Shown: one piece after another, positions 11,270 through 59,117 of the stretch
How the letters are laid out: the number at the start of each line of letters is the position of its first letter
Numbering within the stretch: position 1 is the first letter of the stretch
Source of the DNA: Candidatus Cryptobacteroides sp.
GTDB taxonomy: Bacteria; Bacteroidota; Bacteroidia; Bacteroidales; UBA932
Direction of reading: 5' to 3'
DNA: 64,000 nt
NCBI GenBank assembly: GCA_045597895.1
Contig: JAZLLA010000053.1
Location: forward strand, 24,988-88,987
The notes under the pieces: generated by a model
Seen by the model: the letters and a program-made list of their open reading frames with translations, nothing else
Database searches by the model: none
What the model was told of the DNA's origin: nothing
Translations under genes and position numbers: made by a program

Positions 11270-12250
11270 ATGGATAGAACCGCTGTCATAGATTTTCTGG
11301 GAGATGACTGGAAAAGGACGATGGACCTGATCCACTCGTCCCTTGACAGCGATATTTCTTTGCTTAAGACCACGAATGAGTCGATATTGAGCCATTCCGG
11401 GAAGCAGCTGCGCCCTATGCTGTCCCTTCTTGTGGCGAAAGCCTGCAGCGACGGGGATCTGAAGGATGAGAGCATCCGTTATGCCGCCGCTGTGGAACTG
11501 CTCCACAATGCCACTCTGCTTCATGATGACGTGGCTGACGCCAGCGAAACAAGGCGCGGTGCGCCTACCGTTGCATCCACTCTCGGGAGTGTCCCGTCAG
11601 TGCTCATCGGCGATTTCTGGCTTGTGAAGGCAGTGGACCTGGTCCTGAATACCGGAGCGTACGGCAACGATGTGGCGGGACTGTTCGCGCAGACTCTCCG
11701 CCATCTTGCTGAAGGGGAGATGCTTCAGCTTCAGAAAGCTTTTTGCGGGGATACATCCGAGTCGGATTATTTTAAAATCATCTTCTCCAAGACGGCATCC
11801 CTTTTCGAGGCGGCCTGCCGCTCTGCCGCGATGTCTGTCGATGCTCCGGAGCCTGTACGCAAGGCGGTGGGGGAGTATGCGGTCAAACTGGGTCTCGCCT
11901 TCCAGATCAAGGATGATATTCTCGATTATGAGGGGGGCGATATCGGAAAGCCTGTCGGAGTGGACTTGAAGGAGCAGAAGATCACCCTGCCCTTGCTGGG
12001 GGCTTTCCACAACGCACCTGACGGGACTGAGAGGCTTGTGAGGCAGATGGTCTGCGGGATTCCGCAGCATCCGGAAAATGTAGAAAGGATCATTACGTTC
12101 GTAAAGGAATACAACGGAATGGAGTATGCCGTTGAAAAGCTCCATTCTCTGTGCGATGATGCGGCTGCGGCGCTGTCCGTCCTTCCGGACAGCCGCGCTA
12201 AGGAATACTTGAAGGATCTTGCATATTATACTGCTGACAGGAAGAAATGA
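11270..12250 (+). CDS. polyprenyl diphosphate synthase (trans-isoprenyl, long-chain type)
   Basis: First aspartate-rich motif LLHDDVAD, second FQIKDDILDY, and the GK.VG.DL motif. Confidence 0.85.
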   Translation: MDRTAVIDFLGDDWKRTMDLIHSSLDSDISLLKTTNESILSHSGKQLRPMLSLLVAKACSDGDLKDESIRYAAAVELLHNATLLHDDVADASETRRGAPTVASTLGSVPSVLIGDFWLVKAVDLVLNTGAYGNDVAGLFAQTLRHLAEGEMLQLQKAFCGDTSESDYFKIIFSKTASLFEAACRSAAMSVDAPEPVRKAVGEYAVKLGLAFQIKDDILDYEGGDIGKPVGVDLKEQKITLPLLGAFHNAPDGTERLVRQMVCGIPQHPENVERIITFVKEYNGMEYAVEKLHSLCDDAAAALSVLPDSRAKEYLKDLAYYTADRKK

Positions 12251-26500: not shown

Positions 26501-26520
26501 AATACTAATCCATTCTCAAT

Positions 26521-26560
26521 AAGAAAAGAGGTCGGCTGATTCCAGCCGACCTCTTTTCTT
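26521..26560. terminator. bidirectional rho-independent terminator
   Basis: Perfect 18-bp stem AAGAAAAGAGGTCGGCTG / CAGCCGACCTCTTTTCTT with a 4-nt loop. The A/T tracts inside the arms give a U-tail on either strand. Confidence 0.85.
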
Positions 26561-26572
26561 ATGCTTAAAACC

Positions 26573-54569: not shown

Positions 54570-55565
54570 TTAAAGTGTCTGTCCGCCGATGAACTCCCTC
54601 ATGATGGAGGTAGGAGGGACGGCTGCGATTTCATTAGGTTTGAGTGCCACTACGTGTGCGAGGAAGTCCAGCATCCGGCGTGCCTTCTCATAGGCAGGGG
54701 AGGACTCGGACACTTCATAGAGAAGCGGCTCTGCGTAGTATTCCAGCAGAGGAAGGTCATATAGGGTGGATGAATTGAACACCACTTCGGCATTCTCCTC
54801 GAACGGGAATATGTTCCTGGTCTCTCCGCGTCTGACGCTCGGCCAGAGAAGCAGGGTCTTCTCAGGTGAGATGCCGCGGGTGCGGTTGTCACGCACGATG
54901 CGGCGCAGGAGCCTCTTGTCGGTGGTGGAGTTGTGCACCTTCTCTCCTCCCGGGAGGGCCGAGAGTGCTGAGATGTAGATTCTGAATATCCTGTTCCGGT
55001 CCACTCCCGGGGTAAGTTCAGGATTGAGGGCGTGGATGCCTTCCATCATAAGGATGTCGCGTTCGCCGAGCCTCATCTTCCTGTTCTTTTCGAATACTGT
55101 CGTGCCCGACTTGAAGTCATATCTGGGGATGATGACCTCGCGGCCTGCGAGAAGGTCGTTGAGGTTCGAGTTCAGAAGCTCGATGTTCATTGCTCCGAGG
55201 GCTTCGAAATCGTACTCGCCCTTTTCGTCCTTAGGGGTCTGCTCGCGCGGCACGAAATAGTTGTCCAGCTCGATCACCTTCGGGCTGAGCCCCAGGACGC
55301 GGCATTGCTGTGCGATGCGCAGCGACGAGGATGTCTTGCCGCTGGAGGATGGGCCGGACATCATTACGATGCTGGCTTCGTGCTTGCGCCAGGAGATCTG
55401 GTTGGCCGCTTCGGCGTATTTGCGTTCCTGACGGGCCTCGCAGAGGTTGATCAGATCTATTCCCTTGCCCTGGTTCAGGACTTCATTGAGTTTGTCGATG
55501 GTGTCGATGCCTACTGCAGAGCACCAGTCTGCGTATTCTTGCCTTGCGGCTTCAATCTTTGTCAT
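54570..55565 (-). CDS. P-loop nucleoside/uridine kinase-like protein
   Basis: Walker A MSGPSSSGKTSS in the middle of a 331-aa protein, with PRK/uridine-kinase-like LDNYF and MMEGIHALNP motifs. Confidence 0.55.
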   Translation of the reverse strand: MTKIEAARQEYADWCSAVGIDTIDKLNEVLNQGKGIDLINLCEARQERKYAEAANQISWRKHEASIVMMSGPSSSGKTSSSLRIAQQCRVLGLSPKVIELDNYFVPREQTPKDEKGEYDFEALGAMNIELLNSNLNDLLAGREVIIPRYDFKSGTTVFEKNRKMRLGERDILMMEGIHALNPELTPGVDRNRIFRIYISALSALPGGEKVHNSTTDKRLLRRIVRDNRTRGISPEKTLLLWPSVRRGETRNIFPFEENAEVVFNSSTLYDLPLLEYYAEPLLYEVSESSPAYEKARRMLDFLAHVVALKPNEIAAVPPTSIMREFIGGQTL

Positions 55566-58423
55566 AACAGTATCTCCTTTAGGAATGGTCCTGTGACTGA
55601 GGCCGGATTCTGGGCGAGCTCCTCAGGAGTACCGGACGCGATGATGCGTCCGCCCCTGGCTCCGCCTTCCGGACCCATGTCCAGTATGTAGTCGACGCTC
55701 TTCAGAACGTCGAGGTTGTGTTCGATGATTATTACGGTGTTTCCCTGGTCCACCAGCTTCTGGAGCACTCCCATCAGCACTTTTATATCCTCGAAGTGGA
55801 GGCCCGTGGTAGGCTCGTCGAGGATGTAGAGGGTGTTGCCGGTGGCGCTCTTGAAGAGCTCGGCCGCCAGTTTCATACGCTGGCTCTCTCCTCCGGAAAG
55901 GGTGACTGCGGACTGTCCCAGGTGTATGTACCCCAGGCCCACGTCCACCAGCGCCTTGAGTTTCTGGGCTATCTTAGGGATGCTCTTGAAGAACTCGTAG
56001 GCTTCGCTGACCGGCATTTCCAGGACGTCGCTGATGCTCTTGCCCTTGTATTTGACAGCGAGGGTGTCCTCCTTGTAGCGGAGGCCGCGGCATTCTTCGC
56101 AGACGACATTGACCGATGGGAGGAAGTTCATCTCGATGACTCTGATGCCGGCGCCCTTGCACTCCTCGCAGCGGCCTCCGGCGACGTTGAAGGAGAAACG
56201 GCCGGCGTTGAAGCCGCGGACCTTTGCGTCCGGGGTGTCCTCGAAGAGGGCGCGGATGTCATTGAAGACGCCGGTGAAGGTGGCGGGGTTAGAGCGCGGG
56301 CTGCGTCCTATAGGGCTCTGGTCTATTTCGATGAGCTTGTCGATGTTGTTGTCTCCGGCTATCGCTCTGTATGGGAGGGGCTTCTGCTTCGAGCGGTAGA
56401 ACTTGTTCATCAGGATAGGCATCAGCGTCTCGTTCACCAGGGTGGATTTGCCGCTTCCGCTGACTCCGGCGACTCCTATGAGGCAGCCGAGAGGGAAGTG
56501 GGCGTCGACGTCCTTCAGGTTGTTTCCGCTTGCTCCCAGGATGCTGAGCGTCAGTCCGTTGCCCTTCCTCCTGACCTTCGGCACCTCAATCTCCTTCTTT
56601 CCGGACAGATACTCCAATGTAGTTGACGGCTTTGACGGGGGGTAGTAGCCCTCTGAAAATCGTGCCACCCTCGGCATCGTAAGAGGGAGGGGCCCAGCGT
56701 CAGCTGGGAGGGGTCCTGCGGAGCAGGACATTTTCAGAGGGCTACTACCCTCCGTCAAAGAACCTGAGAAGCAGATTTCGCCGCCGCCAGCACCGGCTCC
56801 GGGACCGACGTCGACGAGCCAGTCGGCCGAGAGCATTGTCTCCAGGTCGTGCTCCACGACGATGACGGTATTGCCCTCGTCGCGAAGCTTCTTGAGCGAA
56901 GCGATCAGTTTGCGGTTGTCACGCTGGTGCAGTCCGATCGAAGGCTCGTCAAGGATGTAGATCACATTGACAAGCTTCGAACCGATCTGGGTGGCGAGGC
57001 GTATGCGCTGGCTCTCACCGCCGGACAGAGACGCAGTCGGACGGTCCAGGGACAGGTACTCCAGCCCCACGTCCATCAGGAAATCCACCCGGTCGGTAAG
57101 TTCCTTGAGGATGTCCCTTGCGATAGCGTTCTCGCGGGCATTGAACTTCGCAGGAAGCGAAGCCAGCCAGGTTTTCAACTCTGAAATCTCCATCGCGGAA
57201 ACCTCCGAGATGGTCTTTGAGTCTATCTTGAAGTAGTTTGTATTCTCATTGAGACGGGTCCCGTGGCATACCGGGCACTCGATCTTGTCCTCGATATCAT
57301 CCACCACGCCGTTCCAGCACACCATTTCCGCCGAACTGCCCTCCCCGATGCGCACTAGCTCGTCGGAGCCGAAGACCAGCAGGGTCACAGTCTCGTCGGA
57401 GAGCTCTGAGACAGGGTCGTATAGGGAGAATCCATGCTTGCGGGATATGGCGCGCACCGTTTCGCATTTGCGGTTTTCCCGCAGCTTGCCCAGAGGCGCG
57501 ATGCCTCCGGCGGCGATGCTCAGCGAGCGGTCGGGGATGATCGTGTCGATATTGACATCGACTATCTTTCCCAGTCCCTTGCAGTGAGGGCAGTAGCCCT
57601 CCGGGCTGTTGAAGGAGAAACTGTGCGGCGCCGGCTCCTGGAGGGAGATGCCGCTGTCCGGGTCGACCAGATGCTTCGAGAAGTGCTGAAGCTCTCCGGT
57701 TTCGATGTCCAGGATGGCGAGCGCTCCTTTGCCGATGCTGAGGGCGTTGATGACGGAGTCCTTGATGCGTTTTTCGTCTCCCGAGCCGGGCTTGAGCTTG
57801 TCCACTACGACCTCGATGAAATGGGCCTTGTAGCGGTCAAGGGCATCCACGTCGTTCAGCGCGAGGATTTCGCCGTCGATGCGGACCTGGGCGAACCCGC
57901 GCTTGCGCAGCTGGTCGAAGAGCTCGCGGTAGTGGCCCTTGCGGCCGCGCACCATAGGGGAGAGGAGGATGCACTTCCTTCCATTGTAGCGCTCCATTAT
58001 CAGCTCGACGATCTGGGTGTCGCTGTAGCGCACCATCTCCTTGCCGGTGACGGGGGAGTAGGCGCGTGACGCCCTGGCGTAGAGCAGACGCAGGAAATCG
58101 TATATCTCGGTGATGGTTCCCACCGTGGAACGGGGATTGGAACCGACGGTCTTCTGTTCGATGGCGATGATAGGGCTCAGCCCCGTGATGTTCTCCACCT
58201 CGGGCTTCTCGAGTATGCCCATGAAATGCTTCGCGTAAGGGGACAGGGTGTTCATATAGCGCCTCTGGCCCTCCGCGTATATGGTGTCGAAGGCAAGGGA
58301 TGACTTTCCGCTGCCGCTGAGTCCGGTTATCACTACGAACTTGTGGCGCGGGATCCTGAGGTCCGCGTCCTTGAGGTTGTGCGCCTTCGCGCCTTCGATG
58401 ATTATGTATTCTTCGTTATCCAT
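55562..58423 (-). CDS. uvrA: excinuclease ABC subunit A (UvrA family) carrying an in-frame insertion in the inter-module linker
   Basis: Walker A GLSGSGKSSLAFDT and GVSGSGKSTL. ABC signatures LSGGESQRIRLA and LSGGESQRMKLA. Zn modules CPHCKGLG, CPVCHG and CEECKGAG. Start taken at MDNEEYIIIEG (ATGGATAA overlap with the upstream MBL gene). Confidence 0.88.
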   Translation of the reverse strand: MDNEEYIIIEGAKAHNLKDADLRIPRHKFVVITGLSGSGKSSLAFDTIYAEGQRRYMNTLSPYAKHFMGILEKPEVENITGLSPIIAIEQKTVGSNPRSTVGTITEIYDFLRLLYARASRAYSPVTGKEMVRYSDTQIVELIMERYNGRKCILLSPMVRGRKGHYRELFDQLRKRGFAQVRIDGEILALNDVDALDRYKAHFIEVVVDKLKPGSGDEKRIKDSVINALSIGKGALAILDIETGELQHFSKHLVDPDSGISLQEPAPHSFSFNSPEGYCPHCKGLGKIVDVNIDTIIPDRSLSIAAGGIAPLGKLRENRKCETVRAISRKHGFSLYDPVSELSDETVTLLVFGSDELVRIGEGSSAEMVCWNGVVDDIEDKIECPVCHGTRLNENTNYFKIDSKTISEVSAMEISELKTWLASLPAKFNARENAIARDILKELTDRVDFLMDVGLEYLSLDRPTASLSGGESQRIRLATQIGSKLVNVIYILDEPSIGLHQRDNRKLIASLKKLRDEGNTVIVVEHDLETMLSADWLVDVGPGAGAGGGEICFSGSLTEGSSPLKMSCSAGPLPADAGPLPLTMPRVARFSEGYYPPSKPSTTLEYLSGKKEIEVPKVRRKGNGLTLSILGASGNNLKDVDAHFPLGCLIGVAGVSGSGKSTLVNETLMPILMNKFYRSKQKPLPYRAIAGDNNIDKLIEIDQSPIGRSPRSNPATFTGVFNDIRALFEDTPDAKVRGFNAGRFSFNVAGGRCEECKGAGIRVIEMNFLPSVNVVCEECRGLRYKEDTLAVKYKGKSISDVLEMPVSEAYEFFKSIPKIAQKLKALVDVGLGYIHLGQSAVTLSGGESQRMKLAAELFKSATGNTLYILDEPTTGLHFEDIKVLMGVLQKLVDQGNTVIIIEHNLDVLKSVDYILDMGPEGGARGGRIIASGTPEELAQNPASVTGPFLKEILL
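56630..56760. mobile_element. 131-bp palindromic (MITE/RPE-like) element inside the uvrA coding sequence
   Basis: 31-nt terminal inverted repeats CTTTGACGGgGGGTAGTAGCCCTCTGAAAAT (56630-56660) / ATTTTCAGAGGGCTACTACCCtCCGTCAAAG (56730-56760) with 1 mismatch. The 69-nt core carries small hairpins (CCCAGC/GCTGGG, GTCCTGC/GCAGGAC). It is read through in frame as ...LTEGSSPLKMSCSAGPLPADAGPLPLTMPRVARFSEGYYPPSK... Confidence 0.65.
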
Positions 58424-59117
58424 TGAGTTCGATTCCGTCCTGCTCCCAGTCGATTCCGTCCTGCTCGGGCTCATTGAACGGCTCCAGGAAAGGGTTGTGG
58501 GTCCTCTCGTCAGCTATGTTGGTCGGAGCGCCGTGGCCGGGGAGCACGTCGGTGGATCCCGGGAGCCCCATTATTCTGTCCATAATGGAGACGATCAGGT
58601 CGTCATAGTTGCAGCACTCCAGGTCGGTGCGGCCTATGGTGCCCCTGAAGAGGGTGTCGCCGCTGAAGAGGAGCCCCTCCTTTTCATTGTACCAGCAGAT
58701 GCCGCCGGGGGAGTGGCCCGGGGTGGCGATGGCCTTCCACTGCTCTCCTATAAGGGTCAGGACGTCGCCGTCGTTCACCGGTTCGGTCTTCAGGGCCGCA
58801 GGGTCGAAGGTGAAGCCGAAGCGGTGCGCCACCTTGCCGTGGATTTCCATCACTTCCGCGTCCCTGGGGCTCATATATGCCTTTATCCCGTAGCGCTTGC
58901 AGAAATCCGCGGCCCCGAGGACGTGGTCCACGTGCCCGTGGGTGATGATGACAGCCTCCGGCACCAGGCCTTCCTTCTCGATGAATGAGGAGAGGGCTCC
59001 GGCTTCCTTTGCGTCGCTGTAACCCGGGTCCACGATGAGAGCCTGACGGGCATCGTTCCATACCACCCAGCAGTTGACTTCGAAGACATTGAAATGAAAA
59101 TAGGAGATATTGAGCAT
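58416..59117 (-). CDS. MBL-fold metallo-hydrolase (glyoxalase II-like)
   Basis: THGHVDH metal motif, with downstream GHSPGG and LPGH motifs. 233 aa. Confidence 0.8.
   Translation of the reverse strand: MLNISYFHFNVFEVNCWVVWNDARQALIVDPGYSDAKEAGALSSFIEKEGLVPEAVIITHGHVDHVLGAADFCKRYGIKAYMSPRDAEVMEIHGKVAHRFGFTFDPAALKTEPVNDGDVLTLIGEQWKAIATPGHSPGGICWYNEKEGLLFSGDTLFRGTIGRTDLECCNYDDLIVSIMDRIMGLPGSTDVLPGHGAPTNIADERTHNPFLEPFNEPEQDGIDWEQDGIELNG

Follow-up and report, generated by a model that had tools for sequence, protein, structure and literature searches.

The window analysed here is a 64,000-nt stretch of a Candidatus Cryptobacteroides sp. contig (JAZLLA010000053.1), the minus strand of which carries a 970-aa open reading frame (ORF) that we identify by sequence as uvrA. 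A palindromic element of 131 bp, the subject of this work, lies inside this gene. An inverted-repeat search of the whole window returned its two 31-nt arms, which are 97% complementary (1 mismatch) and spaced 69 nt apart, and found no other long inverted repeat of comparable kind within the 64 kb. A 22-mer from the arm matched only its own two arms in the window at up to 3 mismatches, with 0 matches expected from shuffles. When the 151-nt region was folded as RNA, the predicted energy was -87.1 kcal/mol versus -47.6 ± 3.8 kcal/mol for shuffled sequences (z = -10.5), and the predicted fold was a long stem closing a three-hairpin junction. The initial annotation had described a unit of this size, with these arms and a hairpin-rich 69-nt core, in frame within an intact uvrA ORF, and all of this was recovered on recomputation (Table 1).

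Relative to insert-free UvrA, the element amounts to an in-frame insertion of ~129 nt, or 43 codons (LTEGSS...YYPPSK), and the ORF reads through it as ...SLTEGSSPLKMSCSAGPLPADAGPLPLTMPRVARFSEGYYPPSK PSTT.... A solved UvrA structure (9gxk) aligned to query residues 19-575 and 616-969, with 5 residues in the structure versus 40 in the query between the two aligned blocks; the insert is thus located precisely where the two ABC halves meet, as had been described initially. A short linker in UvrA lacking the insert had also been anticipated. Indeed, the 120 closest UvrA proteins (75-94% identity) fell into two groups, many of them insert-free (916-923 aa, linker of 12-20 aa) and the others (952-968 aa) carrying 35-45 extra residues at the same place. 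An AlphaFold2 model built on a 45-sequence alignment gave residues 577-613 a predicted local distance difference test (pLDDT) score of ~27 and no secondary structure, in keeping with the earlier suggestion that the translation suits a loop. We read the insert as a disordered Pro/Gly/Ser-rich loop, which would be tolerated because it falls in the flexible junction between the two ABC halves. If the inserts are translated, junction peptides such as ...FSGSLTEGSSPLK and MPRVARFSEGYYPPSK would be expected. At the 5' end of the gene, the true start is probably the second methionine (MDNEEY...), because homologues start 14-17 codons later; the longest ORF overlaps the upstream metallo-beta-lactamase-fold gene by ~59 nt (58416-58474).

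The extra UvrA peptides occurred in at least five unrelated-looking versions (...PRVAQFS..., ...SYDAEGGTVF..., ...RCRGWHGF..., ...NCATLGNIRG..., and ...CHPRQHKR...). All are translations of one DNA, read in three phases along one strand and in two along the opposite one. In a UvrA tree built without the linker the insert states were interleaved, and alleles whose proteins are 99.0-99.8% identical outside the linker nevertheless differed in insert state.

Table 1. Coordinates of uvrA and of the parts of the palindromic element in the 64-kb window
Feature	Position	Strand	Remarks
uvrA ORF, host gene	55562..58474	-	970 aa as longest ORF; true start probably ~17 codons later
Whole palindromic element, 131 bp	56630..56760	-	Bounds set by the inverted repeat
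5' arm, gene orientation (CTTTGACGGAGGGTAGTAGCCCTCTGAAAAT)	56730..56760	-	Inverted repeat
3' arm, gene orientation (ATTTTCAGAGGGCTACTACCCCCCGTCAAAG)	56630..56660	-	Inverted repeat
69-nt conserved core, three hairpins, family signature CCCTCTTACGATGCCGAGGGTGGCAC	56661..56729	-	Fold and comparison of copies
Hairpin 1 (GTCCTGC-TCC-GCAGGAC)	56713..56729	-	Compensatory variation among copies
Hairpin 2 (CCCAGC-TGAC-GCTGGG)	56693..56708	-	Variable in sequence and length; CCCCTCCC direct repeats on either side
Hairpin 3 / most conserved block (CCCCTCCCTCTTACGATGCCGAGGGTGG)	56665..56690	-	Fold and comparison of copies
95-nt segment (core and conserved inner arms)	56648..56742		Inverted in the closest orthologous locus, L001
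TTGACGG, tandem copy of outer arm end (gene strand CCGTCAA-AG-CCGTCAA)	56622..56628	+	Peculiar to the window site

The element is not confined to uvrA. An exact 20-mer used in the first scan had no match in the reference genomes, because the arm sequence is site-specific. We therefore defined a query from a 20-nt stretch common to all versions (TGCCGAGGGTGGCAC N2-3 TTTTC) and scanned one genome per prokaryotic species, which gave at least 117 loci; among the matches listed were 105 true copies, in ~40 Bacteroidales metagenome-assembled genomes (MAGs), the false positives being sigma-54 activator genes of other phyla. A stricter pattern applied to metagenome contigs gave 101 loci with 102 copies. 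All genomes are MAGs or metagenome contigs, and copy numbers from these exact-pattern scans are lower bounds; the richest MAGs held at least 5-10 exact-pattern copies each. The core, ~70 nt long, recurred at ~90% identity in intergenic DNA as well as in 25 or more unrelated genes, in many independent assemblies from different assemblers. A profile made from 154 distinct cores recognized exactly one copy in the window (56650-56739, E = 5.6e-24). All confirmed matches came from Bacteroidales MAGs, several of them named Candidatus Cryptobacteroides, with rumen, omasum, caecum, horse and human gut, and digester as sources. In gut and rumen metagenomes the core was 26-110 times as deep as its flanks, and Logan contigs break inside it. 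We found no match to the element among IMG/VR viral contigs, PLSDB plasmids, or INPHARED phages, and no Rfam family matched it at E <= 10. One MAG (SRR12081294_bin.16) stood apart in that the sequences flanking about nine of its copies also recur, which points to a composite repeat of larger size; on its contig CAMJHF010000005 (L082:2295-4504), three 52-nt tandem-repeat arrays adjoin two copies 1593 nt apart.

Most copies reside in genes and keep the frame. In the genome set, 72 of 105 copies lie within stop-free ORFs of 200-990 aa with a high G+C content at third codon positions, and 83 of the 90 evaluable metagenome copies are spanned by long stop-free ORFs. About 70-90% of sampled copies are in frame inside genes, and copies also occur in intergenic DNA. 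Hosts confirmed by Pfam, whose domain matches often run through the insert, are RibF, AtpG, TrmB, TruB, a MiaB-like methylthiotransferase, TilS, RecR, DnaX, MurB, and AroK; by eye we added IspE, RlmI, RlmN, RsmB, RsmE, HemW, FolC, YggS, TrmH, GcvPB, QueH, an M16 peptidase, and an ABC ATPase. When 5.8 billion proteins were searched with the element-encoded peptides, 215 clusters were returned, and these showed at least 17 domain architectures. Copies were evenly divided in their orientation to the host gene (37 forward, 35 reverse), at least five reading frames are used, and the copies share no single conserved peptide. The even split of orientations, taken together with the universal preservation of the reading frame, speaks against an RNA that is functional or spliced and in favour of the insert being translated, which we infer from sequence. 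With the core thus mostly in frame inside unrelated housekeeping genes, the analogy to Rickettsia palindromic elements (RPEs) drawn in the initial annotation is apt. In three TrmB genes (tRNA (guanine-N7) methyltransferase; L120, L176, and L191), two copies occur per ORF, ~564 nt apart.

Comparison of copies separated a conserved centre from a variable periphery. Across the family the unit measures 85-150 bp, and its consensus runs from an outer stem through CYCTGAAAAY, hairpin 1, CCCCTCCC, hairpin 2, (G)CCCCTCCCTCTTAYGWTGCCGAGGGTGGCAC, RR, and TTTTCAGRG to the complementary outer stem. Conservation covers the core and, within the arms, the innermost ~10 nt (CYCTGAAAAY / RTTTTCAGRG), and does not extend further outward. 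The 31-nt terminal inverted repeats described initially are therefore real at the window copy but are not conserved family ends. In the uvrA 5' arm, for example, the outer ~18 nt are specific to the site and lineage, and the inner CCCTCTGAAAAT is conserved family-wide; one MAG carries eight copies with eight different arms. What is kept in the variable portion is pairing. Of 2186 paired arm positions, 96% are Watson-Crick, and at positions 11-19 from the core, where each of the four Watson-Crick pair types is represented, 91-100% of copies are paired versus 27-56% when partners were shuffled between copies. The window and locus L038 illustrate the compensation (TAGTAG/CTACTA versus AAGTTG/CAACTT), and hairpins 1 and 2 likewise show compensated changes between copies. 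The remaining arm mismatches are asymmetric on the core strand (A.C 32 versus G.T 13). Different species have related arms where the host site is the same, and a loose motif (GGAGGGTAY..SCCCYGAAAAY) is shared between sites. The arms are therefore borne by the element and evolve fast, with compensation. Two CCCYCCC direct repeats in the core were also seen to co-vary between copies (e.g., L040 versus L133), as CCCCTCCC...CCCCTCCC versus CCCCCCCC...CCCCCCC; this hints at conversion between the repeats or at pairing with a common partner (GAGGGTGG).

No target-site duplication (TSD) was evident. Repeats between flank and arm, or between the two flanks, were not enriched over shuffles, and none was present at the junction of virgin versus filled RecR alleles. 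The TTGACGG noted beside the element is indeed present twice on the plus strand (56622-56628 and 56632-56638), but we rejected it as a general TSD, since a similar repeat occurs in only 3 of 67 copies. The repeat is a 7-nt tandem duplication of the outer arm end (window 56622-56638), and the closest orthologous locus, L001, has one too, near 11665-11690 (TGGCAAC-G-TGGCAAC), on the same side relative to core orientation.

Alleles at orthologous sites revealed two further properties that the initial annotation had not claimed: the element inverts in place, and it leaves deletion footprints. RecR provides the fullest series. Virgin alleles, in which ...LTGS is followed directly by EIE..., lack both arms; full inserts of 138 nt occur in both orientations; and between these states lie one-arm footprints (P0196, P0208), two-outer-arm footprints (P0217, P0180), an internal core deletion that leaves the protein 22 aa shorter on a 100% identical background (P0137), and a 129-nt deletion between two TCCG repeats (L130). 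In the pair L127 and L128, the arms and flanks are the same and the inner ~85 nt is an exact reverse complement bar 2 substitutions, which swaps 24 residues (LCHPRQHERGGPIACNGGGPAEQD to CPAPQDPPHCKQWVPPSHVAEGGT); the DNA around these two elements is only 92-94% identical. The uvrA window behaves alike: it is collinear with L001 at 93%, and the 95-nt centre is inverted at 96.8% identity. The apparently empty UvrA alleles L123 and L124 are footprints that keep one arm and have short repeats at their bounds: L124 equals L125 without a 99-nt block lying between CCG repeats, and L123 equals L122 without 123 nt at TCGGG repeats. These one-arm alleles had raised the idea that the arms are copied from the target as an inverted target duplication; we rejected it because RecR virgin alleles lack both arms, the footprint series is bounded by microhomology, and no third arm copy is enriched in the flanks.

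How often the element flips was estimated from 277 orthologous-site pairs, 116 of which were discordant in orientation. None of the 22 pairs with flank identity of at least 97% was discordant, versus 41% at 94-97% and ~50% below that, and the discordant pairs usually differ in their arms too. Flipping is therefore fast when measured against species divergence, but the sampled pairs lend no support to switching within strains. The inversions are read from assemblies in which the arms (at most 41 nt) are shorter than the k-mers used (k119-k141), so orientation is resolved by single k-mers; moreover, each orientation recurs in many independent assemblies, each with its own substitutions. A search of metagenomes for the inverted allele next to the flank found in the window gave 0 matches, which is uninformative. 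Flipped in place, the window copy is predicted to introduce a stop and yield a 588-aa UvrA.

Some inserts at the same positions are of other kinds. Four UvrA proteins (P0066, P0086, P0089, and P0108) and RecR P0140 carry double-length inserts resembling nested or tandem copies at the same site. Other inserts of 40-60 aa match no frame of the element (e.g., ALPPTTPRGLSAFPCLQANTRPGRSADADF; LSEAKASSDAPRRPCETEGRERQSGGSQ) and are found in the UvrA linkers of P0028/P0058, P0068, P0091, P0097, and P0106 and in RecR P0163/P0165/P0179/P0205; these may be further element families or nested insertions.

Taken together, we consider it very likely that the window palindrome is one copy of a dispersed, non-autonomous palindromic family that is confined to a clade of host-associated Bacteroidales, resides mostly in frame in the loops or linkers of housekeeping proteins, evolves in place, and persists as a tolerated selfish insertion. 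At a given site, inversion between the arms exchanges ~24-30 residues of the loop for an unrelated peptide, compensated substitutions rapidly alter the arms and hairpins, and DNA is deleted between short direct repeats, so that footprints with one arm, two arms, or part of the core are left. We suggest that transposition in trans first dispersed the family, and that the enzyme involved would recognize the conserved inner arm or core as hairpin DNA and make no TSD. The mobile form was probably folded single-stranded DNA, since there is no TSD, it is the structure and not the sequence of the stem that matters, the mismatches are strand-asymmetric, and orientation is independent of transcription. 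Pairing of the stem could be kept by templated correction in the hairpin, by gene conversion, or by both. Quasipalindrome-type template switching, the form such correction would take, is established in E. coli. Recombination between the arms, with gene conversion alongside it, would account for the inversions as well, and the deletions might arise by slippage across the hairpin. On this account the element makes protein loops hypervariable only incidentally.

Several points weigh against this interpretation. We found no mobilizing enzyme, as ORF clustering over 105 loci (8-kb windows) gave only syntenic host genes; no autonomous parent, as a search for unpaired half-elements gave only degenerate copies; and no insertion event caught between near-identical genomes. 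It is therefore the dispersal of copies alone that points to transposition. Sites also recur across lineages (UvrA, RecR, TilS, AtpG, and TrmB) and only ~25 host gene families were seen, so the family may be old and now spread mainly by vertical descent and allele exchange, not by active transposition. The inversions were seen only between assemblies from different samples, and the frame after a flip is open in 60% of coding copies versus 50% for other opposite-strand frames, a difference that is not significant. Finally, translation of the insert is argued from intact reading frames, and the UvrA model is of moderate overall quality (mean pLDDT 66).

Other explanations account for parts of these data. 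A programmed intragenic inverton, in which a site-specific invertase recognizes the inner arms and flips the segment reversibly in a clonal population, would produce phase-variable isoforms and, here, a truncated UvrA. Inverted repeats wholly inside genes, clean in-place inversions between alleles, the recoded RecR loop, the predicted stop in uvrA, and an inner arm that is the best-conserved part of the stem all fit such a system, and recoding and premature-stop intragenic invertons do exist in Bacteroides (PMC10028968). We nevertheless think it unlikely: orientation never differed among the 22 pairs with near-identical flanks, the differing arms of discordant pairs are what slow evolutionary flips would produce, not rapid switching, open frames after a flip are not significantly enriched, and no invertase is linked to the copies within 8-kb loci. 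It is more doubtful still that the whole family consists of mobile, self-spreading intragenic invertons, placing in-frame cassettes into housekeeping genes, where a dedicated recombinase would flip them within populations. If that were true, the hosts would have switchable isoforms or on/off states, and a reversibly truncated uvrA would amount to a phase-variable mutator or repair state. A functional structured RNA (a cis-regulatory element, ribozyme, or intron embedded in mRNAs) would explain the very stable fold and the covariation in the stems and in hairpins 1 and 2. It is very improbable, given that half of the copies would be transcribed as the complement, that all coding copies keep a reading frame that splicing would make needless, and that Rfam holds no match.

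That the element is a classical MITE (short for miniature inverted-repeat transposable element), a deletion derivative of a DDE-type insertion sequence mobilized via conserved terminal inverted repeats (TIRs) and making TSDs, is suggested by its small size, multiple copies, inverted-repeat ends, lack of coding capacity, and the loose mid-arm motif common to unrelated sites. Against this, the outer arms are its least conserved part and differ among copies of a single genome, a TSD is missing both statistically and at the RecR junction, and no parent insertion sequence or transposase adjoins any of ~200 copies; we judge this origin improbable. An element dependent on hairpins in single-stranded DNA, like the palindrome-associated transposable elements (PATEs) of IS200/IS605 or the repetitive extragenic palindromes (REPs) served by REP-associated tyrosine transposases (RAYTs), with a Y1/HUH transposase acting on the folded strand, is a possibility we hold only tentatively. 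It would account for the missing TSD, for stems conserved in structure and not in sequence, for the A.C over G.T bias expected if one particular strand folds, and for the equal frequency of both orientations to transcription, which argues for structure at the DNA level over the RNA level. However, no TnpA or RAYT gene was present in the sampled 8-kb windows, known PATEs and REPs are extragenic with conserved hairpins and tags, and no conserved target tetranucleotide is evident at the junctions. Lastly, a single copy in the 64-kb window and a UvrA linker of variable length in the clade might have indicated an immobile, lineage-specific linker that is palindromic by chance, or an assembly artefact. 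We regard this as refuted by the recurrence of the core in at least 25 unrelated genes and intergenic DNA, and by its recovery in many independent assemblies from different assemblers, with arms shorter than the k-mers.

The selfish palindromic family we propose is best placed by comparison with known systems. RPEs (RPE-1 to RPE-10) were reportedly described by Ogata et al. in 2000, as summarized in a 2024 review, which calls them the extreme case of in-frame MITE insertion (PMC10969869). Both groups are palindromic, ~100-150 bp long, dispersed, and in frame in many unrelated housekeeping genes; both would add peptide segments at fold-compatible positions (translation being inferred here), and neither has an identified transposase. 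The Bacteroidales family differs in belonging to another phylum and to free-living host-associated bacteria instead of obligate intracellular Alphaproteobacteria, and it seems unrelated in sequence as far as can be judged. Whereas RPE families encode one conserved peptide in one frame, the Bacteroidales family uses at least five frames in both orientations, and it has site-specific compensated outer arms, in-place inversion, and abundant deletion footprints. By taxon and by peptide conservation, it is not a member of the RPE family. We class it as RPE-like in-frame palindromic selfish DNA, new in its phylum, its invertibility, and its compensatory stem evolution.

The IS200/IS605-type PATEs have subterminal hairpins, lack TIRs and TSDs, insert 3' of a fixed tetra- or pentanucleotide, and depend on a TnpA(Y1) in the genome. 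The hairpins and the missing TSD of the Bacteroidales element would fit this description, but no fixed target motif is evident at its junctions. REPs and REPINs resemble it as hairpin-forming repeats without TSDs that probably act, like PATEs, as single-stranded DNA. REPs are 20-40 nt long, extragenic, marked by conserved GTAG/CGTC tags, and linked to RAYT genes (PMC3733652), whereas the Bacteroidales copies are mostly intragenic, measure 85-150 bp, and have no RAYT-like neighbour in 8-kb loci. In-frame intragenic copies are also known among MITEs, namely Coxiella QMITE1, intragenic ERIC, and Anabaena MITEs (PMC10969869, PMC5896051). The likeness lies in small non-autonomous repeats with inverted-repeat ends and occasional in-frame fusion to host ORFs. 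MITEs, however, have conserved TIRs, usually TSDs, and mostly intergenic positions, with in-frame copies exceptional, whereas in-frame residence is the rule in the Bacteroidales family, which fails two defining tests of a MITE, conserved TIRs and a TSD. In Bacteroides, the intragenic invertons that recode or introduce a premature stop are single loci whose repeats measure 11-30 bp and whose orientations are mixed in one culture (Chanin et al., PMC10028968). They share with our element inverted repeats wholly in coding sequence and a flip that recodes (RecR L127/L128) or would create a stop (window uvrA); they were not reported as a dispersed repeat family, while here the unit is mobile and multi-copy and both orientations were seen only between diverged strains or species. 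In our literature searches no such element turned up for Bacteroidales, as the initial annotation had supposed; the review (PMC10969869) does not mention Bacteroidetes, and the inverton paper (PMC10028968) does not mention transposable elements.

Selfish DNA lying in frame within essential genes has so far been treated as a curiosity of Rickettsia, with its reduced intracellular genome. The same phenomenon is found here in gut and rumen Bacteroidales, which are abundant and free-living, at a density similar to or above that in Rickettsia, with features that go beyond classical MITEs: conservation of stem structure only, no target duplication, inversion that rewrites a loop, and frequent footprints. 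The finding thereby joins two fields, MITE biology and intragenic invertons. Because the same sites occur empty, filled in five frames, and scarred, they offer a natural system for studying how proteins tolerate or recruit random loop insertions. For annotators and strain-level metagenomic tools there is a warning, as the repeat cassettes in core genes such as uvrA, recR, atpG, and tilS are hypervariable, break assemblies, and make protein diversity look greater than it is.

Two shorter palindromes were noted elsewhere in the window. An inverted repeat at 26519-26562, with perfect 20-nt arms around a 4-nt loop (ATAAGAAAAGAGGTCGGCTG / CAGCCGACCTCTTTTCTTAT), is terminator-like, and an imperfect 23-nt overlapping palindrome (GCACCTTCTCTCCTCCCGGGAGG...) lies at 54935-54968 within a PRK-family kinase gene downstream of uvrA.

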